NCBI GenBank assembly: GCA_964625535.1 | Contig: CAZVEX010000004.1 | Span: 38,166-102,165, forward strand | Direction of reading: 5' to 3' | DNA from: an uncultured Gammaproteobacteria bacterium | Lineage (GTDB): Bacteria; Patescibacteriota; Microgenomatia; Daviesbacterales; UBA10151 | DNA length: 64,000 nucleotides | In this document: positions 28,149-63,299 of the stretch, in pieces | Layout of the letters: the number at the start of each line of letters is the position of its first letter | Numbering within the stretch: the first letter of the stretch is position 1 | Made by a program: the position numbers and the translations under genes | Notes under the pieces: generated by a model | Database searches by the model: none | Told to the model about the DNA's origin: nothing | What the model saw: only the letters and a program-made list of their open reading frames with translations

Positions 28149-30701
28149 TTACAGTGCTACGGTGACGCCGATGGAAGTGGAATGGGTGGCGTTGTTTTGA
28201 TCCTCCAGGGTGGCGGTAATGGTGTGCGAGCCTTTATCACCCTCGGGAAACTCCACATGCAGGGCAAAGGGGCCGGAAGTTAAAGTTGATTTTTCCCCTC
28301 CGTCAATTAACCAGGTCACTTTTTTCACTCCCGCAGGGGAGTTGACCGAAGCCAGCACATCAAACACCCTGGGTACATTAGCCCCGTTTGACACATTGAC
28401 TATCTCGATTACTCCGCCTCCGCTGGAAAATCCGGGTACTCCGGAACAACCTTTACTGGCTCCCACAAACCTGGGATCGGGCGCAGTCAAAACCCACTCG
28501 TCAATGCCTTTTTGCCAGAGATTGGCGCCTGTGGGATCATTTTCCTGCAACACCACCACATCTTTTTCATCCGACTCTTCTCCGTCATTGGCTAATCTGT
28601 GTGGATTAGTTCGACAAACCTTGCCGCGCTGATAGCCGGAAGATTCACCCTTGGGCTCCGTCCCTCTGATAAAATACTCTTTTCTGGTGGGAGAGCCGCC
28701 ATGAGGGGTACCTGTCAGCAACCCGTCCACATCCATTTGCACCACATTTCCGGGCCGCTCAAAAGCTTCATTGGGTTTATCTTTTAAAACTTCCCTCATG
28801 ATTCGGTTCCAGATGGGGGAAGCTCCGGTCACGCCCGAGGCAATTTTGGGATCAAGAGGGGTGTTGTCATTGTTTCCCACCCACACGCCGGCCACATAGG
28901 AAGGGGTGTACCCTACTGTCCAATTATCTCTTTTTTCATCGGTGGTACCGGTTTTAACAGCCACTGTTTTGCCAGCTACATTCAAGATGGAATTTGCTCC
29001 AAATACGGCGGTTCTGGCGCCGTTATCGGATAAAATATCGGAAACAATAAAGCTTATCCCTTCGTCCAACACTTTTCGCCCCTCCGAGGGCTTATATTCA
29101 AAAAGAGTTTTTCCACTTGAGTCTGTCACTTTTAGAATAGATATCGGATCGTGCTGGCGGCCCTTGTCGGCCAAAGTACCAAAAGCCACAGCCAAATCCA
29201 GCAGCCTCACTTCCCTTCCACCCAGAGTCAGGGAAAGTCCCACAGAGGCAACATTTTCTTCAGACGGTTCCCAGGATAAAAGCCCCATCCGGTAACCCAA
29301 CTCCATCACATCTTTAACTCCGTTTAAAGCCAGCATTTTGACTGCCGGCACGTTTAAGGAGTTGCCCAGGGTGTAGCGTACCTGCATGGGGCCGCGGTAT
29401 TGGCCGTCGTAATTTACCGGCACGTACTTTGGTTTGTTCCCTCCAGGAAATTCGGTTTTGACATCCAATATGGTAAAGTTGGCCGTGTAGCCTTTTTCCA
29501 AACCTTTGGCATAATTAACCGGTTTGGTGGCCGAACCGGGCTGGCGCAAAGACAGGGCGGCATTAACATTGGGCTCAAAAGTGCAACTTTTTCCCTCAAG
29601 GCAACCTTCCGGCTCGGACTTGCCAAAATAATCCTTTGAACCTACCAGAGCCAAAATTTGCCCAGTTTTAGCATCCAAAACAACAGATGAAGCATTGCCC
29701 ACCTTGCTGCTTTTGAGTTTTTCCACCTCTTCTTTGACTATTTTCTGGGCCTCTGCCTGCAAGCTATAATCCAAAGCAGTAGTCACCTTCAAGCCCCCCT
29801 GTTCTACCAGCACATCTCCAAATTGTTCGATCAGTTTTTCCTTGACATAAAGCACAAAGTGAGGGGCTTTAAAACCTACTTCGTTTTGGGCGGTTCTGTA
29901 AGTTAAAAGCGCTTCCTTTGCCTGATCTGCCTGCTCCTCGGAAATATAGCCGTCCTCTACCATCCGTCTAAGAACCGCTTCCTGACGGACTTTGGCCAGT
30001 TCCGGTTTTGAGCCGTAAGGGGAATAAACTGAAGGGCGTTGAGGTAGTCCTGCCAAAAGGGAAGCTTCTGCCAGATTCAAATCTTTGGCCGATTTTCCAA
30101 AATACAAATTGGCAGCCGCCTCAATTCCATAAGCCGTACCTCCATAAGGAATCTCGTTTAAATACATCTCCAAAATTTGATCTTTGGAGTATACTCTTTC
30201 CACCTGGATGGCCAGAATAAATTCCTTGAACTTGCGGGTGATGGTCCGCTCGCCCGATAACAGGGCATTTTTGATCAGCTGTTGAGTCAGGGTGGAGCCT
30301 CCTTCTACCCGGCGGTGAAATATCAAATCAAATATTGACCTGGTAATGCCGGCCATGGAAAAACCCGAATGCTGGTAAAAATCTTTATCCTCAATGGCAA
30401 TGGTGGCTTGTTTGACATGCTCGGGAATATCTTCCAGTTTGATGGGGGTACGGTTTTGGTTTTGGTAAATGTCATAAAGAAGCTCACCGTTGCGGTCATA
30501 AATTTTGGTGGCCTGGGCCACTTCGCGGTTAGTCAAATCTTGCGGGGAGGGTATTTGGGTGGCAAAAAAAATCACCGTGGAAAAAAGCAAAAGCAAAAAT
30601 CCGATTACCAAAAGCAGCATCCAGTTGGATAAATTGGATAAAAGTTTAATGCGGCCAATTTTGAAGCCTTCTTTCCTTAGTTTCCACGACCCCAATGCCA
30701 T
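28149..30701 (-). CDS. Class A penicillin-binding protein (GT51 transglycosylase plus transpeptidase) with a C-terminal Ig-like extension
   Basis: N-terminal TM. GT51 motifs (EDKDFYQHSGF, GGSTLTQQLIKN, RKFKEFILA). Transpeptidase GSATKP (SxxK) and KTGTT. 850 aa. Confidence 0.85.
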   Translation of the reverse strand: MALGSWKLRKEGFKIGRIKLLSNLSNWMLLLVIGFLLLLFSTVIFFATQIPSPQDLTNREVAQATKIYDRNGELLYDIYQNQNRTPIKLEDIPEHVKQATIAIEDKDFYQHSGFSMAGITRSIFDLIFHRRVEGGSTLTQQLIKNALLSGERTITRKFKEFILAIQVERVYSKDQILEMYLNEIPYGGTAYGIEAAANLYFGKSAKDLNLAEASLLAGLPQRPSVYSPYGSKPELAKVRQEAVLRRMVEDGYISEEQADQAKEALLTYRTAQNEVGFKAPHFVLYVKEKLIEQFGDVLVEQGGLKVTTALDYSLQAEAQKIVKEEVEKLKSSKVGNASSVVLDAKTGQILALVGSKDYFGKSEPEGCLEGKSCTFEPNVNAALSLRQPGSATKPVNYAKGLEKGYTANFTILDVKTEFPGGNKPKYVPVNYDGQYRGPMQVRYTLGNSLNVPAVKMLALNGVKDVMELGYRMGLLSWEPSEENVASVGLSLTLGGREVRLLDLAVAFGTLADKGRQHDPISILKVTDSSGKTLFEYKPSEGRKVLDEGISFIVSDILSDNGARTAVFGANSILNVAGKTVAVKTGTTDEKRDNWTVGYTPSYVAGVWVGNNDNTPLDPKIASGVTGASPIWNRIMREVLKDKPNEAFERPGNVVQMDVDGLLTGTPHGGSPTRKEYFIRGTEPKGESSGYQRGKVCRTNPHRLANDGEESDEKDVVVLQENDPTGANLWQKGIDEWVLTAPDPRFVGASKGCSGVPGFSSGGGVIEIVNVSNGANVPRVFDVLASVNSPAGVKKVTWLIDGGEKSTLTSGPFALHVEFPEGDKGSHTITATLEDQNNATHSTSIGVTVAL

Positions 30702-30821: not shown

Positions 30822-31790
30822 ATGGTAGATTTTGAACAAACAATAAGTAGGCGTGCTTTTTTGCGCTATACGGGAGTTACTAGCTTAGTTTTTGGAAGCC
30901 TATTTTCACCCGCATGTCGTAGCCTGATACCAATGGTTCAAGGGGAAACCCCCAACCACGAATTAGATAAAAATCTTGAGGACGAATTTAAAATTAGACT
31001 CATGACCCTAAGGGATTATTACAGGGAGTTAGGTTTAGAATACCCTGAACACCAATCATATTTAAGGACAGTTCCTCAAGAATGGGACGAAAGAAGATTG
31101 CAACTTTTAAAAGAAGGGCTTTTGGTTTTGCCTAAACACTTTTATCAAGATGAAAATGCCAACGACAGGATGGGTTTTATTTTATCATTCTCTAATGCAG
31201 CCGGAAGAGTAATTGATCAACCGGCCCTGATGGCTCGACACATAGAGGTAGCCCATGAAGAATTTAATGATCCGTCAATTAAGGAGCCTGTTGATATATT
31301 AGCTCATGAACTTATCCACCTACAGGTCCCGCTTACCCTAGAGCCATCCGGAATAATAGTTAATGATTTTATCACCGGTAAACCGTTTGAAGTTTTTACA
31401 AAGAGATCCCCTTGGTTTGAAGAAGTTGAGGATATTTTAGGTGGACCATTTTCCCAAATTTATGCTAAACCACTGGCTAAAATACAGGCTCTTCAAAGAA
31501 CAATTCCAAGTATGCCTAATCTCGAATATAGAGATCGAGCCTACTTTTATAATAGTCTGGCTTATGGTTTTGAAGCAGCTGTTGATCCATTCGAGCTTAT
31601 CTCTGTAATGGGAGTCCACTTTTTACATGGGAGGACTTATTTCCAAACAAGATATAGTGAAGTTCTTTCTGAGACGATGGCTGAAAAGCTGTATGATTTT
31701 ATTAAAAACAGGGTTTACAGAAACCAACAAGAGTACGAGAGGTTTCCGCTTCCAAGTTACCTTCATCCACGTTATCCACTAGTACCTTAA
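30822..31790 (+). CDS. Putative exported zinc-metalloprotease-like protein (HExxH)
   Basis: Tat/Sec-like N-terminus (SRRAFLRYTGVTSLVFGS). HELIH motif at residues about 160-164. No wider family motif recognised. Confidence 0.45.
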   Translation: MVDFEQTISRRAFLRYTGVTSLVFGSLFSPACRSLIPMVQGETPNHELDKNLEDEFKIRLMTLRDYYRELGLEYPEHQSYLRTVPQEWDERRLQLLKEGLLVLPKHFYQDENANDRMGFILSFSNAAGRVIDQPALMARHIEVAHEEFNDPSIKEPVDILAHELIHLQVPLTLEPSGIIVNDFITGKPFEVFTKRSPWFEEVEDILGGPFSQIYAKPLAKIQALQRTIPSMPNLEYRDRAYFYNSLAYGFEAAVDPFELISVMGVHFLHGRTYFQTRYSEVLSETMAEKLYDFIKNRVYRNQQEYERFPLPSYLHPRYPLVP

Positions 31791-31846
31791 GAAGTAAAAA
31801 CTTTAATTACTGCAAATACAATTCTACTTAGGTATAATTAGGTTAT

Positions 31847-31929
31847 CCGGAGGTGGCAGAGTAGTCAATTGCACCAGACTGTAAATCTGGCGGGTTTTCC
31901 CTACGGAGGTGCGAATCCTCCCCTCCGGA
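31847..31929 (+). tRNA. tRNA-Tyr (anticodon GTA), type II
   Basis: CCGGAGGTGGCAGAGTAGTCAATTGCACCAGACTGTAAATCTGGCGGGTTTTCCCTACGGAGGTGCGAATCCTCCCCTCCGGA. Anticodon loop CTGTAAA. Long variable arm. TATAAT at 31833-31838 lies upstream. Confidence 0.8.
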
Positions 31930-32016
31930 CATTAGTTTGGACTGTTAGGACAGTATAAACGATTTAATCAAATATAGGAATTATTATCACTAGGAACTAG
32001 GTGATATAATTACTCT

Positions 32017-32313
32017 ATGGGAATATTTCGTAGGAGAGAATCCGAAGTTGGTGCTGAGATTAAAGAGGAACCTAAACCTTTCAATCTTGAATGGGTTATT
32101 CAAGGAAGTAGTCATATAGCTCAGCTTTCTGTTAATAGAGAACACCCTCTTATTAAGAAGAGTGATAATGTTTTTAAAGATATGCTGACTCCTGGTTTAC
32201 AAGAGATTGAAGATCAGGGATATACAATATTATCTATAGCACCTACTTTTATAGATCCGGGTAACGGTGAAGCATTAGATTACGTAATTGTTGCACAACC
32301 ATCTCCTAAATAA
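32017..32313 (+). CDS. Hypothetical small protein
   Basis: A 98-aa ORF with no motif. It is the first gene after tRNA-Tyr. Confidence 0.35.
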   Translation: MGIFRRRESEVGAEIKEEPKPFNLEWVIQGSSHIAQLSVNREHPLIKKSDNVFKDMLTPGLQEIEDQGYTILSIAPTFIDPGNGEALDYVIVAQPSPK

Positions 32314-32496
32314 ATCCAAGTATATTCCATTTTATGCTCTCAATTAACTTTCGTATTGTTCCAGCTTGACGGTGGAAAAAGAGTTTTACAAAGACAACTG
32401 ACTATATATACTTAATTCTTCAAATGATAAATTAGGTATTAAGGTCCGACTAACGTTTACCAGGTGGACAATTTAATTTTAGACTACCACAACAGT

Positions 32497-33123
32497 CTAA
32501 CCAGAATAGGATACAGGAATAACTCGTTCTAAAATATCAACAATCTCTTGATTAAAAATCCTATCTCTACCTTTTGGCAAAACAAAATCTTCTAATAAAG
32601 CTGCACCATGAATTCCAATAGTCGCATCTGTTTCTAAAGTGGATGCCTCAATTTCATCCGCATAATCGTAAAGCCCTGGGATCCGGGGAATTACTGCCAC
32701 CCTCATCGGGCCAACTAAAAAAGTTCCTTCACTAACGTAACTAAGAGTCCAATAATAATCACCTCGTTGACACATCATTTGCAGAAGATTAACAGGTTCA
32801 GGAGATATCGAGTCTAATTTTTTAGGACTATCCGCAACGGGTAACCCCGCTTTTTTTAAGGCATTCATTAACGCTTGAGTTGCCTTAGGATTTGTAAACT
32901 CAAAGCTATCGGTAGCATAGTGATAAGGTACAAAAGCAATACCGACTTTTTCTCCAGTTTGCCTCATTTTAGCTAATTCTTCTAATCTTGGTAACATCAT
33001 ATTCCTAGCAGCCAAACCCAAATAATAAATACTTGGTACCACAGGAACTACCACCTCTTGTCCCTTATAAGAGAATCTCATTTTTTCAACTCCGTTAGGA
33101 AGTCCAAAATCTCGATCTAGCAT
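32497..33123 (-). CDS. Hypothetical protein
   Basis: A 208-aa ORF with ordinary composition and no motif recognised. Confidence 0.4.
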   Translation of the reverse strand: MLDRDFGLPNGVEKMRFSYKGQEVVVPVVPSIYYLGLAARNMMLPRLEELAKMRQTGEKVGIAFVPYHYATDSFEFTNPKATQALMNALKKAGLPVADSPKKLDSISPEPVNLLQMMCQRGDYYWTLSYVSEGTFLVGPMRVAVIPRIPGLYDYADEIEASTLETDATIGIHGAALLEDFVLPKGRDRIFNQEIVDILERVIPVSYSG

Positions 33124-33187
33124 AGGAGCATTTTATATTTAAAGAATACTAATGTCAAACCACTATAAGTCCTAAACCAGAGGACTC

Positions 33188-34963
33188 TTATTTTCCCTGC
33201 AGGAAATTCAGAAGAAGTTGGAGAAGACCTCTGGCAGTGGATACTCCATAAGTCATGCCGCTGGGAGGAGTGTAGCTCCTACCGCCACCGCCTCCCGAAT
33301 CCCCTGATGGTTGGGATGGTTGAGATGGCTCTGATGGTTGGGATGGTTGAGATGGTTGGGATGGTTGTTGCGGTTCGGATGGTTGGGAAGGAGGCGTGTA
33401 TGATTCTGTTGAGGGAGGAGTGTAAGTACCGGTGCTCGGTGGAGTGTAGTCCGCCGGCGGGGTGTAAGTGCTGCTGCCACCTGATCCGGAGTAGCCAGAT
33501 GGCGGGGTATAGCCGGGTGGCGGTGAATAGCCGGATTGGGGAGTAGTATAAGTAGTTGTGCCCCCACCCGGGCTGCTGCACTGACAACTGGATCCTGTCC
33601 AGGAACAACCCGGTGTCCTACCACAATCCGCTGCCGGATCGCCGCTGTATCCCCCAGAAGATCCACCGCTTCCCGGCGGCCCTCCATAGGGAGGAGCAGA
33701 ACCTTCCGGACTTGGCATATAGACTGGAGGTGTGTAGGCTCTCACCATAGCGCTGGTACACTCACAACTAGAACCGGTCCAAGAACAGCCGTACCTGCCG
33801 CATTCCGCAGCCGGATCAGGAGCTCTGTCTCCATAATAATATCCTCCGTACTGTCCGTAAGTCTGTTGGGAAGCCTGGTCTGCGGGCGGTCGGCATTTAT
33901 CCGGATTGCTTCTGCAAAAATCTTCAAACTCGCTGCGCTGTTCGGAGTTTCCAAACATACTTGGCTGGCCGGGTTGGCATTTATCCGGATTGCTGGCGCA
34001 GAATCCGGAATATTCCTGCGCTTTTTGGGCCGTTTCCCTTGTTTCACCATAATATCCGCACTGACAAGAACTTCCCGCCCAGGAACAATTGGGAGTCCTG
34101 TTGCACATATCCGTAGGATCATACCTTTGAGGAATCACGCCACCCTCACCCAACTCACCTCGGTATCCGCAATCAGCCGGATTTTGCTGACAATAAGAAA
34201 AACATGAAGCCGGATCGCTGCATCCTCCCGGACCCGTAAAAGTGCCGCCTGAAACTTCTTGGAAGCCAGAACATATCTGGAAATTGTTGGGGTCGGAACA
34301 AAAAGATCTGCATGTTCCCTCGCTCGCACACCCCCCAGGCCCCACCTGTCGCTCTCCTCCCCGCAAACCCACCTCTTCGGCAAAAGATTTACACTTACTA
34401 ATGTTTTCCTGCTGCAGGCAAAAGCTTTGGCAGGAACTGGCAGAATCGCAGCCTAAAACTTCCCTGGCTTTATCAATAATTTGACTGCTTCCCGGATCAT
34501 CAATCACTCCTCCCACTATTCCCTGGGATCTGGCAAAGGAATTACAGGTGTCGAAATTGGCCGGCACCTCGCAAAAGTTTAAACAGGCTTCATACGAGTC
34601 GCACCCCAACCGCTTTTTGGCCTCATCCAGAATTTTATCTTTTTCCGTTATGACCGGGTCATCCTGATAAAAACCTTTTTGTTTACCGTAGCTGATGCAG
34701 GATTCGCTGTTGACCGGATCCTCGCAAAAGTTGCGGCAGTCATTGTAATTTTGGCAGTTGCCCAGATCGGCAATCGGAAAATTCACCCCGTAAATTTTGG
34801 CCCGAACTTCCGGATCGACATATTGACCCGTACCTTCTTCAAAATCATCAATGCCATTATTATTATCATCAACAAAAGGGTGGGAGGGAGAAACTAAAAT
34901 ATTGGTTTGACCCAGAAGAGCCAGAAAAAAAACTATCACAAAACCGGCAATGCGTAATTTCAT
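33188..34963 (-). CDS. Secreted cysteine-rich repeat protein with a C-terminal Pro/Ser/Thr/Tyr/Gly-rich low-complexity tail
   Basis: Signal peptide MKLRIAGFVIVFFLALLG. Five modules of about 30 aa each with four Cys (for example GCDSYEACLNFCEVPANFDTCNSF). Three modules of the form C-x4-CSW-x-GSSC-x-C. The tail is YTPP/PSQPSQ-rich (…PSQPSEPQQPSQPSQPSQPSEPSQPSQPS…). Confidence 0.7.
   Translation of the reverse strand: MKLRIAGFVIVFFLALLGQTNILVSPSHPFVDDNNNGIDDFEEGTGQYVDPEVRAKIYGVNFPIADLGNCQNYNDCRNFCEDPVNSESCISYGKQKGFYQDDPVITEKDKILDEAKKRLGCDSYEACLNFCEVPANFDTCNSFARSQGIVGGVIDDPGSSQIIDKAREVLGCDSASSCQSFCLQQENISKCKSFAEEVGLRGGERQVGPGGCASEGTCRSFCSDPNNFQICSGFQEVSGGTFTGPGGCSDPASCFSYCQQNPADCGYRGELGEGGVIPQRYDPTDMCNRTPNCSWAGSSCQCGYYGETRETAQKAQEYSGFCASNPDKCQPGQPSMFGNSEQRSEFEDFCRSNPDKCRPPADQASQQTYGQYGGYYYGDRAPDPAAECGRYGCSWTGSSCECTSAMVRAYTPPVYMPSPEGSAPPYGGPPGSGGSSGGYSGDPAADCGRTPGCSWTGSSCQCSSPGGGTTTYTTPQSGYSPPPGYTPPSGYSGSGGSSTYTPPADYTPPSTGTYTPPSTESYTPPSQPSEPQQPSQPSQPSQPSEPSQPSQPSGDSGGGGGRSYTPPSGMTYGVSTARGLLQLLLNFLQGK
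33305..33368. repeat. Tandem DNA repeat (units of about 12 and 27 bp) encoding the PSQPS(E/Q)PS tail of the Cys-rich protein
   Basis: tgatggttgggatggttgagatggctc / tgatggttgggatggttgagatgg / ttgggatggttg are near-perfect tandem copies. Confidence 0.6.
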
Positions 34964-35208
34964 TTTGTTTGCTTTAATGCGTCAAAGGGATTTTTGTAAG
35001 AGGCAAAAGGATTAACATACTGGGCATTCTTATCAAACGGGTTTTGATACTGGGTTTGCAGAGAAACTGTTGGTTCTTTCCGAACACCTGGCAGGGATTT
35101 TAGAGGATTTTTAATGATTTTTTGAGAGATAAGGATAAATAAAACTGCCGCTACTATAAGTAGTAGCAGCAGGGGAGCGACTAGGGCAATTACTCCTTTT
35201 TGATTCAT
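34960..35208 (-). CDS. Small single-pass membrane protein with three NPF-containing repeats
   Basis: TM segment VIALVAPLLLLLIVAAVLFILI. Repeats YQNPFDKNAQ / YVNPFASYK / NPFDALK. Its ATG overlaps the stop of the Cys-rich gene (ATGA). Confidence 0.5.
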   Translation of the reverse strand: MNQKGVIALVAPLLLLLIVAAVLFILISQKIIKNPLKSLPGVRKEPTVSLQTQYQNPFDKNAQYVNPFASYKNPFDALKQTK

Positions 35209-35241
35209 TAACTTATTATGGACATAAGAAGTAAAACTTTG

Positions 35242-36081
35242 TCAAGTCTTCCATCTGCTGGCAGGAGTTTGAACCCGGCCCAGTTTCTGGCCAATTTTTA
35301 AAACCCAAGATAAAAGAAAATAATACAGCTTACCATGATAATGGATGGCGGCTTTTTGCAAAAGCTCTTGGGATTTATCCACCCCGATAGTTTTGGAGGC
35401 GGCTCCGTGATGATGAATAAATTTGGCAGAGGGGACAAAATAGACGGGGACGCCATACCTTTTTAATCTTCTGGCATATTCAATATCTTCAAAATAGATA
35501 AAAGTCCCTTCATCAAGTAAACCTACCTTATTAATAATCTTTCTGGGAATCAAATAGCAGGCCATGACCAAACCTTCAACTTGGGTAGGGTTTTCCCCTT
35601 GGGGTTGAAACATAAAATATGAGCCAGAACGGCCTAAAAAATATTCCTTGAAAGCACCGGTTATCGTGGGAAGATGAAAGGCGGAATCCTGCTTTGATCC
35701 GTCGGGAAAAACCAATTTTCCGCCCAAAACAGCTTCTTCTTGAAATGATTCTCCCCATTTTAACATTTGCGATAAACTGTTTTTCGCAACTTCAATATCG
35801 GAATTAAGCAGTAAAATATATTGACCTTGGGAAAATTTAATCGTTTTGTTATAGCCCTTGGAAAAACCCTCGTTTTCTTTATTTTGTAAATATTTAACTC
35901 TGGGGAGATAATCTTTAATGATCTTTTGACACTGATCTTTTGAACCATTATCCACCACAATCACTTCCATAGTTTTTTCATCAAACCCGGACTCTTTTTC
36001 GAAAATGCTTTGCAAAAGTTTTTTGGTTAAGCGGGCAGTATTGTAATTAACAATGCCAATGGAAAGTTTAAGAGAATACAT
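35242..36081 (-). CDS. Family 2 glycosyltransferase (paralog 1 of 4)
   Basis: IVNYNT…VVDNGSKD…LLLNSDIEV are the GT2 DxD-region motifs. Confidence 0.75.
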   Translation of the reverse strand: MYSLKLSIGIVNYNTARLTKKLLQSIFEKESGFDEKTMEVIVVDNGSKDQCQKIIKDYLPRVKYLQNKENEGFSKGYNKTIKFSQGQYILLLNSDIEVAKNSLSQMLKWGESFQEEAVLGGKLVFPDGSKQDSAFHLPTITGAFKEYFLGRSGSYFMFQPQGENPTQVEGLVMACYLIPRKIINKVGLLDEGTFIYFEDIEYARRLKRYGVPVYFVPSAKFIHHHGAASKTIGVDKSQELLQKAAIHYHGKLYYFLLSWVLKIGQKLGRVQTPASRWKT

Positions 36082-36955
36082 AATCTAAAACTCCTCTTCT
36101 TTGGGCAGGTCTGCCAAAAATAAATAATTTTACTGCCTCTCTAAGCAGCGCAAATTTAGTTCTGAAGTTTCCATACTTCATCCCAAAAAATAATCTGTTT
36201 CTGGTGTGATAATAATCCGTGATTGCAGAACCTACCCCTGTTGATTGGGAAACTTTATGATAAATTGCCACACTACCATTGTAAAACTTTCTAAACCCCT
36301 CATCAGATGCTCTCTTGACAAAATCGCTATCCTCAAAATATAAGAAATACTTTTCATCAAATAATCCAATTTTCTCAAAGACCTTTTTTTTGATCAAAAT
36401 ACAAGCTCCGGTTATTAAATCTGTTTCTTCCGCATTGTTATATTGACCCTTATCTATCTCATCTATTCCGCGGTGCACTGATCTAATATTATCCCAATCA
36501 AACTTACCTCCTGCATACCAGATTACTTTGCCTTGATCATTTTTTGCATATCTATCTTTATGAAACTCAAACCCTGCAGCAAAATAAATTTTGGGAGAAA
36601 CCAAGCCAATGTTTTTATCCGCCTGGGCTGTTTTGATTAACTCTTCAAGTAAATTGGCATCTTTAATCAAACAATCATTATTCATAATAAGGAAGTAATC
36701 CGCTCCCCAAATTCTCGCGTATTCTATGCCGCGGTTGTACCCTCCGGCAAAACCTAAATTTTGCCCGTTTTGCAAAACCAGAACTTCCGGATAATTTTTA
36801 ACCAGTTCTTCAACCAGTCCATCCGTTGAACCATTATCAACTACGACAGTCTTCAGCTCGCAGTCTTTCGTCTTCAGCTTTTTTAAGGATTCAAGAAATT
36901 CTAATGTATCTTTTTTACCGTTATAATTTACCGTAATTATTGCTAACTTAGTCAT
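36068..36955 (-). CDS. Family 2 glycosyltransferase (paralog 2 of 4)
   Basis: ITVNYNGKKDT…VVVDNGSTDG…IMNNDCLIKD. Confidence 0.75.
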   Translation of the reverse strand: MTKLAIITVNYNGKKDTLEFLESLKKLKTKDCELKTVVVDNGSTDGLVEELVKNYPEVLVLQNGQNLGFAGGYNRGIEYARIWGADYFLIMNNDCLIKDANLLEELIKTAQADKNIGLVSPKIYFAAGFEFHKDRYAKNDQGKVIWYAGGKFDWDNIRSVHRGIDEIDKGQYNNAEETDLITGACILIKKKVFEKIGLFDEKYFLYFEDSDFVKRASDEGFRKFYNGSVAIYHKVSQSTGVGSAITDYYHTRNRLFFGMKYGNFRTKFALLREAVKLFIFGRPAQRRGVLDYVFS

Positions 36956-37833
36956 ATTACTGATAACCCTTCAAGATATGCTCCAGCTCTTTTGGTTTTT
37001 CCCAAAAGGGAGAAAGCAATCACTCTAAAAATTAATCCCAAAACAAGAAATAATCTTACCAAAGGATAAATTCCCAAATAGTATTTTTTAAAATAATATC
37101 TGATACCCGCCAGTTCTTTGACAAAGACTTTTTCCGGCAAAGCCGGACTGCTAGCCCTTAGCAAATGAGTTACTTGTATTGACGGAGTAAAGTAAACCTT
37201 AAAACCCCCGCGACCCACTTTCTTACAAAGATCCACCTCATCCATATACATAAAAATGGATTCGTCAAATCCGCCGACTTTTTCAAAGATATGCCTTTTG
37301 ATCATAAAAAAAGCTCCTGTCACCCAACCAACTTTTTTCTCCCGCTTGAAAAAATCTTTGTTTCTGGGATGAAATGAATTGGCTATGCCAAATATCCAGG
37401 GGATAACATTGAAAGGGTTTGGCAGAAAACCGGCGCTTGGCTGCAAGTTACCATTTTCATAAACTAATTTAACGCCCAAAACGCCGCAGTCAGGATGTTC
37501 CTTAAAATATTCAAGCGACTTAAAAAGAGTGTCTTCTTCCACAAAACAATCCGAATTTAATAAAAGAATCATCAGATTGCTTGTCTTTTTTATGGCCAGA
37601 TTATTACCTTTGCTATAACCCGTATTTATTTTAGATTTAATTAGTTTTACCCATGAGTGTTTCCTCCCAATCATTTCTGCTGATCCGTCTGCCGATGCAT
37701 TATCAAATACAATTACTTCTATCTTGTTCTTGAGCTTAGCCTGACAACTGACAACTGACAACTGCAGTCTCCTCAAACACTCATCAGTAATATTTTTGGT
37801 ATTAAAGCTTAAAATAATTATTGATAGATCCAC
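36952..37833 (-). CDS. Family 2 glycosyltransferase (paralog 3 of 4). Contains the heptanucleotide repeat.
   Basis: IIILSFNTKN…IVFDNASADGS…LLLNSDCFVEED. Start and stop overlap the neighbouring GT2 genes. Confidence 0.75.
   Translation of the reverse strand: MDLSIIILSFNTKNITDECLRRLQLSVVSCQAKLKNKIEVIVFDNASADGSAEMIGRKHSWVKLIKSKINTGYSKGNNLAIKKTSNLMILLLNSDCFVEEDTLFKSLEYFKEHPDCGVLGVKLVYENGNLQPSAGFLPNPFNVIPWIFGIANSFHPRNKDFFKREKKVGWVTGAFFMIKRHIFEKVGGFDESIFMYMDEVDLCKKVGRGGFKVYFTPSIQVTHLLRASSPALPEKVFVKELAGIRYYFKKYYLGIYPLVRLFLVLGLIFRVIAFSLLGKTKRAGAYLEGLSVI
37741..37761. repeat. Heptanucleotide tandem repeat (CTGACAA)x3 inside GT2 paralog 3
   Basis: ctgacaactgacaactgacaactgcag encodes QLSVVSCQ on the minus strand. 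Because the unit length is not a multiple of 3, a change in copy number would shift the frame. Confidence 0.5.
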
Positions 37834-38693
37834 AGCTTTGCCTTTCTGTAATGCTCGAGCATTTTAATTCCGGCCAAAATAATATCCCTCAAAACTGGAG
37901 GATATCTATTATAATAATGTTTCCTGTAAAAAATTCTCATGGCGGAAGCTCCATGAGAGACGGCCACGGCTTTTTCCTTTTTGGCAGACGAACCTTTAAA
38001 GTGAATGATTTTGACCTCGGGATAAAAATAAATTTTCCAGCCTTTTTCTTTTAGTAAGTAACAAAACTCAATGTCTTCCCCGTTCCAAAAATAATCCGTG
38101 TCCCACCAGCCGACTTGTTCCCCGGCAATTTTTCGAACCATCAAAAAAGCTCCTGTCAGAGAGTCTATCTCATGAATTTTATGGATATCCAAATGCGTGG
38201 CAGTATAGCCTGCAAAAAGTTTCCATTTGGGAAATAATTTTGCCAGGCCCGAAAAATAAGCAAAAGCGTTCCAGGGAGTGGGAAAACCCCGATGGCAAGA
38301 ATAATCCAATCTGCCGTCCGGCAGTTCGACCCGACAGGTGATGGCTCCTATGTCGGGATTACTCATCAAAAACCCATAAGTTTTTTGAATGGCTTTATCT
38401 ATAATAACAGTATCGGGATTTAAGAATAAAATAACTGGAGCCTTGGCCAGCTTCACGCCTTCATTATTGCCCGCAGCAAATCCTAGATTTGATTTATTTT
38501 TAATTATTTCAACCTTGGGAAATTTTTCTTTAACTGCCTCAACCGAATTATCCGAAGATGCATTATCTACTACAATAATTTGCCAATTGTCTTTCTGTGT
38601 TTTGTTTTCAAAGATAGATTCCAAACAATTCAGCAATAAATCCTCAACATTATAGTTAAGGATAATGATTGATAAATCAGGGCTTTGGGCCAT
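37818..38693 (-). CDS. Family 2 glycosyltransferase (paralog 4 of 4)
   Basis: IIILNYNVEDL…IVVDNASSDNS…ILFLNPDTVI. Confidence 0.75.
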   Translation of the reverse strand: MAQSPDLSIIILNYNVEDLLLNCLESIFENKTQKDNWQIIVVDNASSDNSVEAVKEKFPKVEIIKNKSNLGFAAGNNEGVKLAKAPVILFLNPDTVIIDKAIQKTYGFLMSNPDIGAITCRVELPDGRLDYSCHRGFPTPWNAFAYFSGLAKLFPKWKLFAGYTATHLDIHKIHEIDSLTGAFLMVRKIAGEQVGWWDTDYFWNGEDIEFCYLLKEKGWKIYFYPEVKIIHFKGSSAKKEKAVAVSHGASAMRIFYRKHYYNRYPPVLRDIILAGIKMLEHYRKAKLWIYQ

Positions 38694-38730
38694 GTAGATA
38701 ATTGTATAACAGAGGGTTTATGATTACCAA

Positions 38731-39135
38731 TTAGCGGACTCGGTGGCGGCGTTTAATCCGCAGTTGGGCCAGGGATTTTTCTAAAATAGCTAAGGTTTCT
38801 GCATATTCTTCATCAGACAGCTTTTGTTCCAAAGCCTGCTCGGCCCGTTTTTTAGCTTCCTCAACAGCCCGCTCGTCTATATCTTCGGCATAAGTTGCCA
38901 GATCAGTCATAATCGTTAGCGTATTATCACTCATCTGTAAAAACCCGTCTCCTATGGCTAAATTCTCCACTTTTCCACCCTTTTTAATAATTAATTCTCC
39001 GGGTTCCAGTTTGGCCATTAAATTGGCATGGTTGGGGAGTATGCCTATTTCTCCCTGTTCTGTGGGGGCATTAACCTGGGAAACCTCTTCATCCACCAGC
39101 AATTTTTCCGGGGTAACAATTTTCAAATGCAACAT
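38731..39135 (-). CDS. atpC: F1 ATP synthase epsilon subunit
   Basis: MLHLKIVTPEKLLVDEEVSQVNAPTEQGEIGILPNHANLMAKLEPGEL is canonical epsilon. The ORF could extend 5 codons upstream to 39150. Confidence 0.85.
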   Translation of the reverse strand: MLHLKIVTPEKLLVDEEVSQVNAPTEQGEIGILPNHANLMAKLEPGELIIKKGGKVENLAIGDGFLQMSDNTLTIMTDLATYAEDIDERAVEEAKKRAEQALEQKLSDEEYAETLAILEKSLAQLRIKRRHRVR

Positions 39136-39151
39136 GATATTATTATACACG

Positions 39152-39511
39152 ATGAATCACAGCGCAGAAGCAATCATCATAACTTGCATTGATTTTAGGC
39201 TGCAGGAAGCCATAAATCAATGGATTTCTAAAAATTTTGTCCCTAAAACTTTTGACAGGGTGGCTTTGGCCGGGGGAGTAAAAAATCTTGACATCATCCT
39301 CAATCAAATTGATATTGCCTATAAATTACATCATATCAAAAAAGTGGTTTTAATAAACCATGAAGACTGCGGGGCTTATGAGGAGGCGGGTACGCCGGAA
39401 AAACATGCGGAAGATCTGAAAACAGCCAAACAAAAAATCCTGTCACAATTTCCGGATTTGGCAGTGGATACTTATTATCTTAAACTGGATGGTACTTTTC
39501 AGCCTGTCTAA
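39152..39511 (+). CDS. Small beta-carbonic-anhydrase-like protein (CxDxR / HxxC motifs)
   Basis: IITCIDFRLQE and VLINHEDCGAY resemble the beta-CA zinc-ligand motifs (C-x-D-x-R, H-x-x-C). At about 120 aa it is much shorter than typical beta-CAs. The start is ambiguous (39134 or 39152). Confidence 0.4.
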   Translation: MNHSAEAIIITCIDFRLQEAINQWISKNFVPKTFDRVALAGGVKNLDIILNQIDIAYKLHHIKKVVLINHEDCGAYEEAGTPEKHAEDLKTAKQKILSQFPDLAVDTYYLKLDGTFQPV

Positions 39512-39557
39512 TACCCTATAGCTTGCAAGAAATAACTAAAGCTGGTAAAATGACTCT

Positions 39558-40028
39558 ATGCTACCTGAACTTTTGAGACCTGATAATCCTGAATTAAGAA
39601 GATCATCATCAACAGTGCCGCGGTTTCAGATTTCTGCGGTCCAAGATGTAATTAGGTTATTAGTAACAATGCTGGAAATTAATCCAGAAGCAGTCGGAAT
39701 TGCTGCCCCGCAGTTTGGATGTAACCTTAGAATATTTGTGGCAAGGCTCTCCGGGGAACCGACTGTTTTTATCAATCCCAAGAGTGATTTTTTTTCAATG
39801 AAAAGAGTACCAGTTACTGAAGAATGCCTAAGTTTACCAGGAAAAAAACGAAGAGTCTTAAGATGCGAAAGCGTAGGGCTAAGCGCCTATAACCAAGAGG
39901 GAGATCCCTTTTCTGTATTGGCATCTGGCGCGCAACAAGCAGCAGTTCTGCAACATGAAATGGATCACTTAAATGGGGTGCTGATCATTGATAGACCTGC
40001 AGTCCGTAGAAGACTACGTTGGCTCTAG
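39558..40028 (+). CDS. def: Peptide deformylase
   Basis: GIAAPQFG, EECLSLPG and QHEMDHLNG are the three PDF motifs. Confidence 0.85.
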   Translation: MLPELLRPDNPELRRSSSTVPRFQISAVQDVIRLLVTMLEINPEAVGIAAPQFGCNLRIFVARLSGEPTVFINPKSDFFSMKRVPVTEECLSLPGKKRRVLRCESVGLSAYNQEGDPFSVLASGAQQAAVLQHEMDHLNGVLIIDRPAVRRRLRWL

Positions 40029-55794: not shown

Positions 55795-56484
55795 CTATTC
55801 AAATGGATCCGCTTTGCCGGTCACGGTCAAGGGTACAGCAGTAGATACTTCGGTTCTGGCCAGCTTGGAAATCAGCTCTTCCTCTCCCGAGGAGATTTGG
55901 GGAAGCGGGGAGTCGATACTGCCCAAATTAGCCGGTATCGGAGTAAACATCGCTTCAATTGCCAAATTAGCGTCTACTATATCCCCCCCTCTACCTGATG
56001 AAACTTCTATATTAGTAACCCTCATTAGCCTGGGAGAGCTCTCAATGCTGCTTAAAAACCTACCGAGAAGGTTTTTGGCTCCGACAGCTTCCAGTCTAGC
56101 CCCAAAACTTTGCCCGGTGGATGATTTATTCCCGCTACCTGCTCCAAGAGACAATGCAGTAATAACAAATCCATTTTCGTTTGCTATATTCTGAAGTAAA
56201 ATAATAGTGCCGGCAAAATCTTTTTCTCCAGGCAGAGACGAAAGAACATAACTTACTTGACGGCGCAAACTATCTTCATCCAGACCCTCAAGCGCCTCAA
56301 CCTTGGTATTTAAAAACTCCGATCTGGTCCTAAAATCCTGCTCAAGGCGGGAATTTTTTAAGAATACTCCGATTTGGGGAATCAACACAAAGGTTAACAG
56401 GATAAGGCATGAAACAACCACCGCTGCCGGAAAAATAAACAGCCTGTATTTTTTATAAAATTTGCCCAAACTTTCTTTGTTCAT
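55795..56484 (-). CDS. pilO: Type IV pilus assembly protein PilO-like
   Basis: Bitopic membrane protein directly downstream of pilN, with N-terminal TM, coiled coil and a ferredoxin-like C-terminus. Assignment is by context. Confidence 0.55.
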   Translation of the reverse strand: MNKESLGKFYKKYRLFIFPAAVVVSCLILLTFVLIPQIGVFLKNSRLEQDFRTRSEFLNTKVEALEGLDEDSLRRQVSYVLSSLPGEKDFAGTIILLQNIANENGFVITALSLGAGSGNKSSTGQSFGARLEAVGAKNLLGRFLSSIESSPRLMRVTNIEVSSGRGGDIVDANLAIEAMFTPIPANLGSIDSPLPQISSGEEELISKLARTEVSTAVPLTVTGKADPFE

Positions 56485-57005
56485 TTGGTTTTAATTTTTA
56501 AACTAATCCTGTAAGTATTTTCTCTACCCCGGTTTAAGCTTTCCACCGACACCTCGGAAACTGCGGTTAAATCGGATATGAGAGTATCCAAAATAATCAC
56601 ATCCGGAATCACGGCGACCAATTGAGCATCGCCGGAGCGGTCAACATTTAAAGAACTGATGCCAATCTGGGAGGACAGCAACCCGTCGAGCAAAGCATAG
56701 GTGGAAACCTGTTTGGAAGTTACCCCCAGATACTGATTAATGGTAGAAAGTCTGTTTTTGATAAGGAGCAGAGAAGTTTGCCTACCGGCAAGTTGAGTAA
56801 CCTTTTCTTCTCCCTCAACGATTTTAGCTTCCACTGCCCTGATGTTTTGGCTTTGTAAAAAACGGATCCCCACCGCAATGGAGGCAAAAAAGGCTACCAG
56901 CAAAATGGCTGCGGTAGACATTAATTGAACCTTATAAAATTTAGCTTTCTTTATTTCATCGCTTAAATATTCTCGGGGTAATAAATTAATGGATATTCTT
57001 GCCAT
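56481..57005 (-). CDS. pilN: Type IV pilus assembly protein PilN
   Basis: N-terminal INLLPREY motif followed by a TM helix. Confidence 0.7.
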   Translation of the reverse strand: MARISINLLPREYLSDEIKKAKFYKVQLMSTAAILLVAFFASIAVGIRFLQSQNIRAVEAKIVEGEEKVTQLAGRQTSLLLIKNRLSTINQYLGVTSKQVSTYALLDGLLSSQIGISSLNVDRSGDAQLVAVIPDVIILDTLISDLTAVSEVSVESLNRGRENTYRISLKIKTK

Positions 57006-57007
57006 CT

Positions 57008-58045
57008 CTAATCCTCCCTTAAAGCCAAACCTGTTGCCACGGAGTAAAGGGGAGCCAGAGCGGACAGTTTCGCTTCCATTGCCTTATCTTTAATAATGCC
57101 GTACCAGGGGTCAGCTTCCTGCACTTCCAAACCCAGAGCATTGGCAAGGTATATCACCAAGCCCGGCATTTTGACTCCTCCTCCTGATAAAACCACTCTT
57201 TTTATCTGATTTTGTGGGTATTTACCGTCAAAAGCCTGCGCTATTCTTCTTCCCTCCATGGCAATAATATCAACCAGGGGTTTTAGAGCCTCAAACACTT
57301 TTCCCTCAAGCTGATCCTGATTTAAACCGTAGACTTTTTTATATTCCTCGGCCTGCGAGCCTTCAAAATTAAATTGCTGAGCCAGAGCCCGTGTCAGCGC
57401 TATACCGCCCGTAGAGATTGACCGGGTCAGCCAAATAAGCCCCTGAGACACAGTAGCAAAATCCGTTGAAGTTGCGCCAAGCTGAATAATTAAAGTGCTG
57501 GGGGAAAAGGGGTTTCTGCCCACCAATGAGCGGGTAATGGCAATAATATCTGTCTCCAGGGCTTTTGCTTTTATTCCGGCTAAAGAGAGTACTTTAATAT
57601 ATTTCTCAACTGCTATTTTGGGGGAGGCAATTACCAGCACTATGGTTTTGGAGTTTTTGTTTTTACTGTCGGATCTGGCTAAAACCTGCCAGTTTAAATT
57701 GACGTCGGATAAGGGCATGGGGATAAACTCCTCGGCCGCATATTTTATGGCGGACGAAAGTTCCTCATCCGTAAGGTAGGGCAAATCATCAATTACCCGG
57801 GTGAAAACTTTACTCTCGGGCAAGGCTACCACCGCCTCTTTGGTATCAATCCTGGAGTTGCTAAAAAGCCTTTTGATAGTTTCCGCAACTTTTTCCAGGT
57901 CAGCGTCCTGCTCGGAGATCATCCCGGGTAAAGGAGTTGGCAACGCTCCCAAAGTCAACAGTTTAGCTTGATTTCCATCAAGATTAATCTGAACTGCTTT
58001 GATGGAAAAAAAACCAATATCCAAACCAACATTAATTTTGGCCAT
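57008..58045 (-). CDS. pilM: Type IV pilus assembly protein PilM (actin-like ATPase fold)
   Basis: VGLDIGFFSIKAVQ… matches the FtsA/PilM fold. 345 aa. Confidence 0.8.
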   Translation of the reverse strand: MAKINVGLDIGFFSIKAVQINLDGNQAKLLTLGALPTPLPGMISEQDADLEKVAETIKRLFSNSRIDTKEAVVALPESKVFTRVIDDLPYLTDEELSSAIKYAAEEFIPMPLSDVNLNWQVLARSDSKNKNSKTIVLVIASPKIAVEKYIKVLSLAGIKAKALETDIIAITRSLVGRNPFSPSTLIIQLGATSTDFATVSQGLIWLTRSISTGGIALTRALAQQFNFEGSQAEEYKKVYGLNQDQLEGKVFEALKPLVDIIAMEGRRIAQAFDGKYPQNQIKRVVLSGGGVKMPGLVIYLANALGLEVQEADPWYGIIKDKAMEAKLSALAPLYSVATGLALRED

Positions 58046-58071
58046 AGGCAGTAGTTTTATTGTAACACTTT

Positions 58072-59853: not shown

Positions 59854-60415
59854 TTCTTAAGTTTGCCTCCGATGTGGCAATCGTCACCTCAAACTCCGTC
59901 CCGCTTTTTTGTTTTAGGGACAAGGTAATTTTGACTTTGGAAGCCAAAACGGGCGCAACCTCCTGGGGCGGGTTTGACGAATCAAAATATTTAAACTCTA
60001 TTCTGTCCGCATTGGTTAAAAAAATCCGGTCTTGACTCTTTCTGGAACTTACCTCGGCGGGATAAGTTTTAAGACGAAGTACACTTTGATCCAAAAAGAA
60101 AACAAAGTAATCAAAAGAGTTGGCGATGATATTATCCGCGTTATCAACCGAGGCAAGTTTTAAAATTAATTGACTGCTTCCGCTGGTGTAGCTTGGCGGC
60201 GGAGTCTCCGGGTAGGTGGCGGCAATGTTTTGAGCTTCTCTGACGGCGTTTCTGATATTGGAGAGCGCCTCATTGACTCCCAAACCCTGTTCTATCCTGG
60301 CGGACTGTTTTAAAAAAAGACCGGTGGAATTGACAATAATCACCACCAGCAGCGTCCCTACTATGGTAGCCACGCCCATGGCTACCAGCACTTCAACAAG
60401 AGTGAGGCCTTTCAT
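59846..60415 (-). CDS. Minor pilin / pseudopilin (prepilin-type N-terminus)
   Basis: MKGLTLVEVLVAMGV is the class III signal peptide motif. The listed ORF extends further upstream, but the conserved start overlaps the stop of the next gene (ATGA). Confidence 0.65.
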   Translation of the reverse strand: MKGLTLVEVLVAMGVATIVGTLLVVIIVNSTGLFLKQSARIEQGLGVNEALSNIRNAVREAQNIAATYPETPPPSYTSGSSQLILKLASVDNADNIIANSFDYFVFFLDQSVLRLKTYPAEVSSRKSQDRIFLTNADRIEFKYFDSSNPPQEVAPVLASKVKITLSLKQKSGTEFEVTIATSEANLRND

Positions 60416-61646: not shown

Positions 61647-61658
61647 ATAATTATTATA

Positions 61659-63278: not shown

Positions 63279-63299
63279 ATATCCATGATATCACAAGAT

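Follow-up and report, generated by a model that had tools for sequence, protein, structure and literature searches.

A six-gene run on a Daviesbacteria-like chromosome probably juxtaposes a surface-glycan cassette and an independently conserved surface-protein pair

Introduction

Whether six genes packed tightly on one strand constitute a single functional system is the question raised by the run at positions 38693-33188 (minus strand) of a 64,000-nucleotide stretch of contig CAZVEX010000004.1 (assembly GCA_964625535.1), which is referred to here, at its full length, as the window. The run encodes four family-2 glycosyltransferases (GT2), a small membrane protein with Asn-Pro-Phe (NPF) motifs, and a Cys-rich protein of 591 amino acids (aa). 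Patescibacteria, the group in which this DNA is placed by its GTDB lineage, make up a large part of the diversity of bacteria, have for the most part not been cultured, and are believed to live attached to other cells; to our knowledge, their envelope proteins are almost entirely unannotated. A first-pass annotation, made from the letters of the window, had read the six genes as one glycosylation system on an accessory island, with the long Ser/Thr/Tyr/Pro tail of the Cys-rich protein as the kind of sequence that is O-glycosylated.

The reading that we hold to be probable is a different one, namely that the run is a juxtaposition of independently conserved envelope modules, a GT2 surface-glycan cassette and an NPF/Cys-rich surface pair, set in a syntenic core region of a Daviesbacteria-like chromosome.

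Results

Gene content of the run

All six minus-strand open reading frames (ORFs) were verified at the coordinates first given for them:

GT2_1: 37818-38693, minus strand; 291 aa; family-2 glycosyltransferase of the GT-A fold that opens the conserved GT2 cassette
GT2_2: 36952-37833, minus strand; 293 aa; family-2 glycosyltransferase with a GTG start
GT2_3: 36068-36955, minus strand; 295 aa; separate ORF here, with an ATGA overlap with GT2_2
GT2_4: 35242-36081, minus strand; 279 aa; separate ORF here, with a 14-nt overlap with GT2_3
Small bitopic membrane protein: 34960-35208, minus strand; 82 aa
Cys-rich, probably secreted protein: 33188-34963, minus strand; 591 aa

The packing on one strand is thus as the first-pass annotation described it, and so are its two ATGA overlaps (GT2_2/GT2_3 and small/Cys-rich, both of 4 nt). 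In transcription order, the junctions measure -16, -4 (ATGA), -14, +33, and -4 (ATGA) nt; the short overlaps claimed for the other junctions are therefore present at GT2_1/GT2_2 and GT2_3/GT2_4, while GT2_4 and the small gene are separated by a 33-nt gap. The same-strand run is in fact longer than six genes, reaching from atpC (38731-39150) through a 208-aa ORF (32497-33123). A promoter and terminator scan of 32300-39400 gave counts close to the shuffled expectation and is thus uninformative as to transcript structure.

Two units, conserved separately

Conservation as a unit applies to the last two genes, not to all six. This can be seen from a set of 78 loci, one genome per species, whose ORFs were scored with purpose-built hidden Markov models (HMMs); the loci of relatives bear L-numbers in what follows, and the 82-aa NPF gene together with the Cys-rich gene is called the pair. 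Of the 78 Cys-family genes, 66 have an NPF gene immediately upstream of them on their own strand, and the junction of the two is a 4-nt overlap in 43 of 73. Loci with no upstream NPF gene belong mostly to the most distant members, labelled Parcubacteria or Saccharibacteria, and two pairs per locus are found in L018, L043, L048, L050, and L077. What surrounds the pair differs: it follows SecA in a Gottesmanbacteria genome and TyrRS in the Daviesbacteria chromosome CP066688, stands alone in Roizmanbacteria, and comes directly after atpC, with no GT2 genes between, in L048, L049, and L054. A GT2 gene occurs within the 5 kb upstream in 14 of 49 pair loci and is missing there from the other 35.

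The glycosyltransferase genes form a unit of their own. GT2_3 and GT2_4 correspond to the N- and C-terminal halves of a double-GT2 of ~600 aa that is a single gene in relatives: GT2_3 is 63-70% identical to residues 1-296 of the fused protein in L004, L010, L011, and L013, and GT2_4 is 65-70% identical to residues ~311-607 of the fused protein of relatives. GT2_1, GT2_2, and the double-GT2 are called the triplet here, and 21 triplet loci, gathered by a metagenome scan with the double-GT2, were scored in the same way as the pair loci. The pair is absent from 16 of them and lies downstream in the remaining five. Three long contigs chosen solely for their double-GT2 (L092-L094) carry an orthologous triplet (65-73% identity) after atpC, with GT2_1 orthologues 65-68% identical in the same place and GT2_2 orthologues 49-54% identical, and with no pair within 10 kb. 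Overall, cassette orthologues of 65-75% identity occupy the matching place between atpC and PBP1A. Over more than 120 clusters, the fused double-GT2 is 66-75% identical, which makes it better conserved than the Cys-rich protein (33-67%). With 16 of 21 triplet loci lacking the pair and 35 of 49 pair loci lacking a nearby GT2, the claim that the six genes are one glycosylation system does not stand.

Triplet orthologues that are more distant (48-52% identity) are found next to rmlA, rmlB, rmlC, and rmlD in L116, L117, L119, and L130. In the last three of these, the rml genes are directly upstream of the triplet, which is followed by a GT2-GtrA fusion and then by a 236-aa GT2 overlapping a PMT_2 glycosyltransferase of the GT-C class (47.5 bits, above the gathering score). 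Such a locus is a classical rhamnose-type surface-glycan locus, and it looks complete in L117 (4387-22155), where a nucleotidyltransferase, rmlA-D, the GT2 triplet, the GT2-GtrA fusion, and several GT2 + PMT_2 GT-C pairs occur together and the Cys-rich pair does not; L119 and L130 have loci like it, as do L116, L114, and L115 in part. GT2 genes of this kind are thus found consistently in a conserved polysaccharide cluster without the Cys-rich protein, an outcome that the first-pass annotation had itself named as contrary to its reading.

How the two units come to be neighbors in the window is answered by synteny. The order atp operon, GT2_1, GT2_2, double-GT2, small, Cys-rich, PBP1A, pheTS, rplT, rpmI, infC, thrS recurs in four Daviesbacteria/Microgenomates genomes. 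The run is not the accessory island that had been proposed: the block order is conserved, the GC content and third-position GC content (GC3) of the Cys-rich gene are like those of core genes, and the six genes include no integrase or transposase. The “disrupted” atp operon that was taken as a sign of insertion is likewise a conserved arrangement: the Pro_CA_2 gene between atpD and atpC is kept across relatives and is therefore an ancestral interruption, not an insertion scar.

The GT2 cassette

That the run holds four paralogous GT2 glycosyltransferases is confirmed by Pfam, where all four exceed the gathering score of PF00535 (62.8-97.1 bits against a cut-off of 23.3; E 1e-17 to 1e-27, the values for GT2_1, GT2_2, and GT2_4 being 1.5e-27, 5e-17, and 2.9e-24); their pairwise identity is 24-32%. 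The catalytic motifs, as read from the translations, are intact in each. Over the four proteins, GT2_1 first, the nucleotide-sugar motif reads VVDNASSD, FDNASADG, VVDNGSTD, and VVDNGSKD, the DxD-like motif NPD, NSD, NND, and NSD, and the acidic motif EDIE, DEVD, EDSD, and EDIE. No NCBIfam model reaches its cut-off for any of the four; the best sub-threshold matches are to rhamnosyltransferase, GlfT1, EpsD, HpsE, and MftF models, with GT2_3 and GT2_4 scoring 74.2 and 59.7 bits against the 200.55 bits required by the WbbL-like rhamnosyltransferase model TIGR01556. The nearest PDB sequence to GT2_3 is a galactofuranosyltransferase (E 2.8e-7). By hydrophobicity scan, a transmembrane (TM)-like segment is present only in GT2_2, at C-terminal residues 259-277 (Kyte-Doolittle 19-residue maximum 2.34 at residue 259), and not in GT2_1, GT2_3, or GT2_4. 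With no TM segment in three of the enzymes and a single, C-terminal one in the fourth, the likeliest place of action for all of them is the cytoplasmic side of the membrane.

Taken together, the rml context of the distant orthologues, the sub-threshold similarity to rhamnosyltransferases, the scarcity of TM segments, and the intact motifs point to cytoplasmic-face transferases acting on a lipid-linked glycan. It is from the rmlABCD neighborhood of the distant orthologues, and from nothing nearer, that a rhamnose specificity may be suggested for the cassette. The window itself has no rml gene, and among the ~30 window proteins scanned with Pfam there is no initiating phosphoglycosyl transferase, flippase/transporter, or LCP ligase. 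On this evidence the cassette is an ordinary one, most likely a set of sugar transferases for a cell-surface glycan.

The small NPF protein

The description of the 82-aa product as a small membrane protein with NPF repeats was correct: it has one N-terminal TM helix (Kyte-Doolittle 19-residue maximum 3.3) followed by three NPF motifs. The triple motif, Y-x-NPFD...QYVNPF...KNPFD, is invariant in the eight small-protein sequences aligned. The protein has no Pfam or NCBIfam family, yet its own family numbers 1,352 homologues, the best 120 of which are all of 72-107 aa and unnamed.

The Cys-rich protein and its family

The 591-aa protein was first described as secreted and Cys-rich, and it is indeed very probably exported and Cys-paired, as judged from a single N-terminal hydrophobic segment and from 36 Cys arranged in modules. 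These Cys fall into five C-x5-C-x3-C-x8-C, three C-x5-C-x6-C-x-C, and two C-x6-C patterns. From N- to C-terminus, the features of the protein are as follows:

34892-34963, minus strand: putative signal peptide or N-terminal anchor (aa ~1-24), consisting of MKLR and then a hydrophobic core of 14 residues
34154-34801, minus strand: five tandem three-helix modules (aa 55-270) of ~45-50 aa each, C-x5-C-x3-C-x8-C
33575-34117, minus strand: second module block (aa 283-463), three helix + beta-hairpin modules (C-x5-C-x6-C-x-C) and two helical C-x6-C modules (FCxxNPDKC)
33254-33574, minus strand: disordered stalk (aa 464-570) of Pro/Ser/Thr/Tyr/Gly/Gln with YTPP and PSQPS repeats, predicted local distance difference test (pLDDT) <50
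33188-33253, minus strand: conserved C-terminal motif, amphipathic helix, and stop codon (aa 571-591), TYGVSTARGLLQLLLNFLQGK

The N-terminal segment is the sole strongly hydrophobic stretch of the protein, and AlphaFold2 (AF2) predicts a helix there at residues 2-21. In relatives the hydrophobic region ends in AxA- or VFA-Q-type sites, in keeping with a putative signal peptide that may be cleaved. An AF2 model of the whole protein, built from a 66-sequence alignment, has a mean pLDDT of 68 and a predicted template modeling score of 0.32 and resembles beads on a string: it is confident over residues 50-270, where the three-helix modules lie, and continues with modules to residue 463, a disordered tail, and a C-terminal helix. 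Block-mean pLDDT is ~75-96 in the three-helix modules and 53-58 at two linkers. The modules of the second block are joined by short disordered linkers, and their number differs among relatives.

In the 66 aligned members, 23 of the 36 Cys are invariant, among them all 20 of the five three-helix modules, and another five reach at least 90% conservation. Among 258 family members, 226 have an even number of Cys (p = 4e-37), the counts ranging from 28 to 60; together with the conservation of the Cys, this fits pairing within modules.

The tail had been described as being of the O-glycosylated kind, and as a variable, disordered Pro/Thr/Ser/Tyr stalk it fits that description. A 9-bp tandem repeat at 33306-33388 (9.2 copies, 74% matches) encodes its PSQPSQ part, so that slippage could change the length of the stalk; the tails of homologues vary, reaching ~600 aa of YYTPP-type repeats. 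Beyond the stalk, the family ends in the consensus VQG(V/I)ST.R.LLQ.IL(D/N).L..(K/R), with 19-22 residues from the motif to the end. AF2 places a helix at 580-588 (pLDDT ~89), and the last 21 residues have a mean hydrophobicity of 0.42 and a hydrophobic moment of 1.45, as expected of an amphipathic rather than a TM helix. Motif and helix together are a candidate anchoring or partner-binding element.

Who else has this protein? A word-indexed search returned 197 homologues with E<=1e-3, all of them unnamed and without a Pfam family; those with a named source are all from Daviesbacteria, other Microgenomates, or a “Patescibacteria group bacterium”. An exhaustive profile search, clustered at 50% identity, yielded 1,758 clusters, of which 942 have an E-value below 1e-30. 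These homologue numbers and the conserved Cys indicate that the ORFs are real genes and not chance reading frames.

The first-pass annotation could match no known adhesin or S-layer protein, and our searches of Pfam, NCBIfam, PDB, and BFVD, covering SLH and Ig-like domains, agree with it. Pfam and NCBIfam assign the Cys-rich protein to no family. Pfam on the 66 aligned members gave sub-threshold noise only (CP12 in 11 members, best E 0.027) and, on ten longer or more distant members, no informative domain fusions. No fusion of the NPF protein with the Cys-rich protein occurs among 258 family members. A PDB sequence search with the family profile came back empty, the best Foldseek match in PDB had an E-value of 2.6, and Foldseek against the BFVD viral structures found nothing. 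A literature search for such a family in Patescibacteria, Daviesbacteria, and Microgenomates returned only the Cys-rich proteins of Peregrinibacteria, which are a different family, and unrelated papers; neither the NPF partner nor the C-terminal motif is described in the literature searched. Two specific identities were considered and rejected. A metallothionein or anti-sigma factor gave no family signal, and the protein appears to be exported. A sortase substrate would require features that are missing here: the protein has no LPXTG, its C-terminus is amphipathic with no TM segment, and the NCBIfam sorting-signal models do not match it.

As to source labels, many assemblies with a Patescibacteria-type locus (L015, L017, L021, L024, and others, binchicken co-assemblies) are titled “uncultured Gammaproteobacteria bacterium”, and these labels look unreliable.

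Is the stalk glycosylated, and by what?

Indirect support for glycosylation of the stalk comes from six relatives, in which a multi-pass, PMT_2-like GT-C gene adjoins the Cys-rich gene:

L055: 12682-14163, abutting or overlapping the Cys-rich gene
L073: 12920-14353, abutting or overlapping
L017: 10538-11956, 76 nt downstream
L060: 4146-5597, abutting or overlapping
L061: 6956-8383, upstream of the pair
L095: 17704-19185, abutting or overlapping

The GT-C gene is downstream of the Cys-rich gene in all except L061. In an alignment of ten GT-C proteins, the six pair-adjacent ones and four from rml loci, the N-terminal acidic-loop residues are invariant, and eight of the ten match PF13231 (PMT_2); two pair-adjacent members scored alone reach 23.6 and 21.7 bits, short of the gathering score of 26.1 bits. 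The tails of the GT-C-linked proteins are very rich in Tyr and Thr-Pro, and most are very long YYTPP tails, of up to ~600 aa with ~120 Tyr. In L017, where the Cys-rich protein is 48% identical to that of the window, the GT2 triplet is upstream as well.

O-glycosylation of the stalk is, from these architectures, plausible for the family. In the window, an HMM built from the pair-adjacent GT-Cs and run against all ORFs of at least 40 aa finds no GT-C, and Pfam finds no flippase, oligosaccharyltransferase, or second Sec component among the ~30 proteins scanned. If the GT2 enzymes are cytoplasmic and the Cys-rich protein is exported by Sec, the two would be on opposite sides of the membrane, and any glycosylating enzyme is likely to be an extracytoplasmic GT-C encoded elsewhere rather than the neighboring GT2s. 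What stands of the undescribed system proposed for this locus is an undescribed Cys-rich protein, exported and possibly glycosylated; the six-gene glycosylation system does not.

Genomic setting

The rest of the window is core genome, comprising thrS, pheS/T, VanW, PBP1A, the atp operon, tyrS, recG, murT, glmS, and type IV pilus genes (Pfam on ~30 proteins). An Rfam scan of the whole window found tRNAs only. One of these, the tRNA-Tyr that had been placed next to the locus, is indeed present at 31847-31930 on the plus strand, albeit 1.26 kb past the 3' end of the run and with two other ORFs between. It belongs to the only variable spot of the block, 30822-33123, between the Cys-rich gene and PBP1A, which holds this tRNA and three ORFs of 322, 98, and 208 aa and where relatives have other genes or none. 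None of the three proteins has a Pfam or NCBIfam family; the 322-aa protein has a twin-arginine-like N-terminus (RRxFL) and a metalloprotease-like HELIH motif, and beside it are the 98-aa ORF and a 208-aa ORF seen only in same-species contigs.

The GC and GC3 of the Cys-rich gene resemble those of PBP1A and atpD. Its recent horizontal transfer, considered on account of its high GC, was rejected, GC3 being core-like and the excess GC coming from Pro, Gly, and Ser codons.

At the other end of the run, two plus-strand genes part atpC from atpD (38954-40028). One is the carbonic-anhydrase-like Pro_CA_2 gene, 70% identical to its counterpart at the same place in a Daviesbacteria genome, and the other is peptide-deformylase-like, with EECLS and HEMDH motifs. 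A type IV pilus gene set on the minus strand (55795-63803, ~20 kb from the locus) includes PilM, a prepilin with an N-methylation motif, and several unassigned ORFs.

Within the run, a promoter-like hexamer pair lies on the minus strand at 35362-35335, inside the 3' end of GT2_4. Three Logan contigs from three sequencing runs (L001-L003), whose small and Cys-rich genes are identical, all stop at window position 35365, which is 157 nt upstream of the small gene and within the 3' end of GT2_4. That all three end on one base hints at branching between co-existing strains at the module boundary. Exact look-ups of the window's proteins gave short Logan contigs only, and the Cys-rich protein occurs in identical form in the groundwater-filtrate sample series SRR121133xx-SRR121134xx.

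In other genomes, a strongly conserved, membrane-anchored Cys/His-rich protein of ~385 aa precedes the pair in 17 of 66 loci. It carries the motifs CHGFVH, CGYGFYHG, and CYHGIGHG and has no Pfam or PDB relative; longer paralogues (~500 and 800-870 aa) have an N-terminal cupredoxin-like domain. Loci with such proteins are L017, L043, L050, L055-L063, L067-L073, L095, and L104 (for example, L073:8545-9705 and L063:12671-15181). Both the Cys/His-rich protein and the cupredoxin proteins are absent from the window.

Discussion

A working model of the two modules

In module 1 (38693-35242), the four GT-A domains would add sugars to a lipid-linked glycan of the surface or cell wall, one that probably contains rhamnose. 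Module 2 (35208-33188) would be a translationally coupled pair. Its Cys-rich protein would be exported by Sec and fold into some ten small modules with two disulfides each (one in two of the modules), carried on a disordered stalk whose length varies with lineage and which could span the wall. A C-terminal amphipathic helix, the NPF partner, or both would hold the protein at the membrane. For the helix there is an analogy in PBP5 and PBP6 of E. coli, which are anchored by C-terminal amphipathic helices. The 82-aa partner would act as a membrane-anchored peptide presenting three NPF turns, and we propose these as a dock for the Cys-rich protein. Most probably, then, the two proteins make up an envelope or surface complex that is conserved in Patescibacteria and serves in structure, tethering, or attachment, and are not a substrate dedicated to the GT2s encoded beside them.

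Of this account, gene content, conservation, linkage counts, and module architecture are observed, whereas export, disulfides, anchoring, NPF docking, the type of glycan, and any glycosylation are inferred. Several points weigh against it. The function assigned to the pair comes from architecture only, and the rml linkage that suggests the nature of the glycan is limited to orthologues of 48-52% identity, with none in the window. Roughly one locus in four to one in three keeps cassette and pair adjacent, and in L017, L061, L073, and L095 the GT2 triplet, the pair, and the GT-C form a single same-strand array, so that the two modules may be functionally linked after all. The four Cys per module could bind metal instead of forming two disulfides, and many Patescibacteria are anaerobic, a setting in which extracellular disulfides are less expected. 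The topology of the window's 82-aa protein is ambiguous too, there being more positive charges after its TM helix than before it.

Alternative explanations

The kept adjacency and the same-strand arrays are also what would be expected if the run were one system after all, in which the GT2s build a glycan for the Cys-rich tail, either before export or by way of a lipid-linked intermediate, with an extracytoplasmic transferase whose gene is elsewhere. The tight one-strand packing, in which the only gap is the 33 nt between GT2_4 and the small gene and there is no convincing terminator, agrees with such a system, as do the 14 species-level loci in which the adjacency is kept, the four arrays joining triplet, pair, and PMT_2-like GT-C, and the extremely Tyr/Thr-Pro-rich tails linked to GT-C genes, with which the window's tail shares YTPP. 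We nonetheless think it unlikely. Most triplet loci (16 of 21) have no pair, most pair loci (35 of 49) have no nearby GT2, and there are rmlABCD surface-glycan loci that contain the triplet but not the pair. In the window, the dedicated HMM finds no GT-C, and the proteins scanned include no flippase or oligosaccharyltransferase. Enzymes of the PMT type (GT-C, family GT39) use a polyprenyl-phosphate monosaccharide, and a GT-C of this type would not need a four-domain GT2 cassette.

If the Cys do bind metal, the modules might be metal or redox sites and the pair an extracytoplasmic component for metal binding or electron handling. Most modules do have exactly four conserved Cys, a Cys/His-rich protein of the CxHG type precedes the pair in 17 of 66 loci and has longer relatives with a cupredoxin-like domain, and anaerobes are, as said, common among Patescibacteria. 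The Cys spacing, however, fits no Fe-S, rubredoxin, or zinc-ribbon motif in Pfam, the modules have no conserved His, and two of the four Cys are placed by AF2 one helical turn apart on one helix, as in disulfide-stapled helical hairpins; the Cys/His-rich neighbor and the cupredoxin proteins are also absent from the window. This makes a metal or redox function, in our estimate, distinctly improbable. Less probable still is that the pair serves peptidoglycan synthesis as an accessory factor, for instance as regulator or scaffold of the adjacent class A penicillin-binding protein. PBP1A, with its transglycosylase and transpeptidase domains, comes straight after the pair in several Daviesbacteria, follows it at a distance of up to 6 kb in 13 of 50 loci, and in the window is found at 28149-30701, 2.5 kb away. 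Yet all 13 loci belong to the Daviesbacteria-like clade, where the adjacency is broken by variable genes, in the window as elsewhere; the Gottesman- and Roizmanbacteria loci examined do not show it, nor do most others, and in genomes where the pair is missing from the block, PBP1A is still in its usual place. Two independently conserved modules that are neighbors by core synteny thus remain the reading that we prefer.

Comparison with known systems

The cassette recalls the rhamnose cell-wall loci of Gram-positive bacteria (streptococcal Rgp, group A carbohydrate) and the mycobacterial WbbL-GlfT1-GlfT2 enzymes, with which it has in common a row of GT-A GT2s, most of them without a TM segment, best sub-threshold similarities to rhamnosyl- and galactofuranosyl-transferases, and orthologous triplets beside rmlABCD (L116, L117, L119, L130), followed by GtrA- and PMT_2-type genes in L117, L119, and L130. 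It departs from them in that the window has no rml gene, the proteins scanned include no initiating transferase, transporter, or LCP ligase, the double-GT2 is split, and no curated cut-off is reached.

For the pair, no single precedent fits. As in actinobacterial O-mannosylation by Pmt (GT39) and Ppm1, there is an exported protein, here a putative one, with a disordered Thr/Pro/Ser-rich region and, beside its homologues, a PMT_2-like GT-C; unlike there, the window has no GT-C, pair-adjacent GT-Cs fall below the gathering threshold, and the GT2s are not DPM1/GtrB-like. Stalked LPXTG proteins with Pro/Thr or Ser/Asp spacers share the plan of signal peptide, folded head, and variable low-complexity spacer near the C-terminus. 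The Cys-rich protein differs from these in having no LPXTG and no C-terminal TM segment, in ending instead with the amphipathic helix VQGVST...LLQxLLxxL, and in its obligate small membrane partner. From serine-rich-repeat adhesins with accessory Sec it is set apart by the lack of a GtfA/GtfB-type GT4 in the six genes, which are GT2s and two family-less proteins, and of SecA2/SecY2 among the proteins scanned. Large Cys-rich extracellular proteins are known from Peregrinibacteria, where they average ~1,655 aa, have weak similarity to Myxococcus Cys-rich repeats, and were proposed by the authors to have roles in rigidity or attachment (PMC4736985). Those proteins are likewise exported, Cys-rich, and from the Candidate Phyla Radiation; neither an NPF partner nor the present module pattern is described there, and by their description the two groups are distinct (PMC4736985). 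The pair therefore looks to be an uncharacterized, lineage-specific variant of the stalked surface-protein theme.

Significance

For annotation, the lesson of this locus is that tight packing reflects conserved core synteny here and not a functional operon, and plain surface-glycan synthesis is the annotation that the GT2 cassette should receive. That some relatives have a GT-C gene linked to the pair leads to a specific hypothesis, O-glycosylation of the Tyr/Thr/Pro stalk. More tentatively, as a possibility that we rate well below the two-module reading itself, the pair might be an undescribed envelope device specific to Patescibacteria, consisting of a head that is carried by a Tyr/Thr/Pro stalk open to glycosylation and anchored, by a novel C-terminal signal (VQGVST and amphipathic helix), to a dedicated three-knob membrane partner; such a device might serve small episymbiotic cells in wall tethering or host attachment. 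With 1,758 and 1,352 clusters for its two proteins, and neither a family nor a PDB or BFVD match, the two-gene module is a testable candidate for a lineage-specific surface structure.

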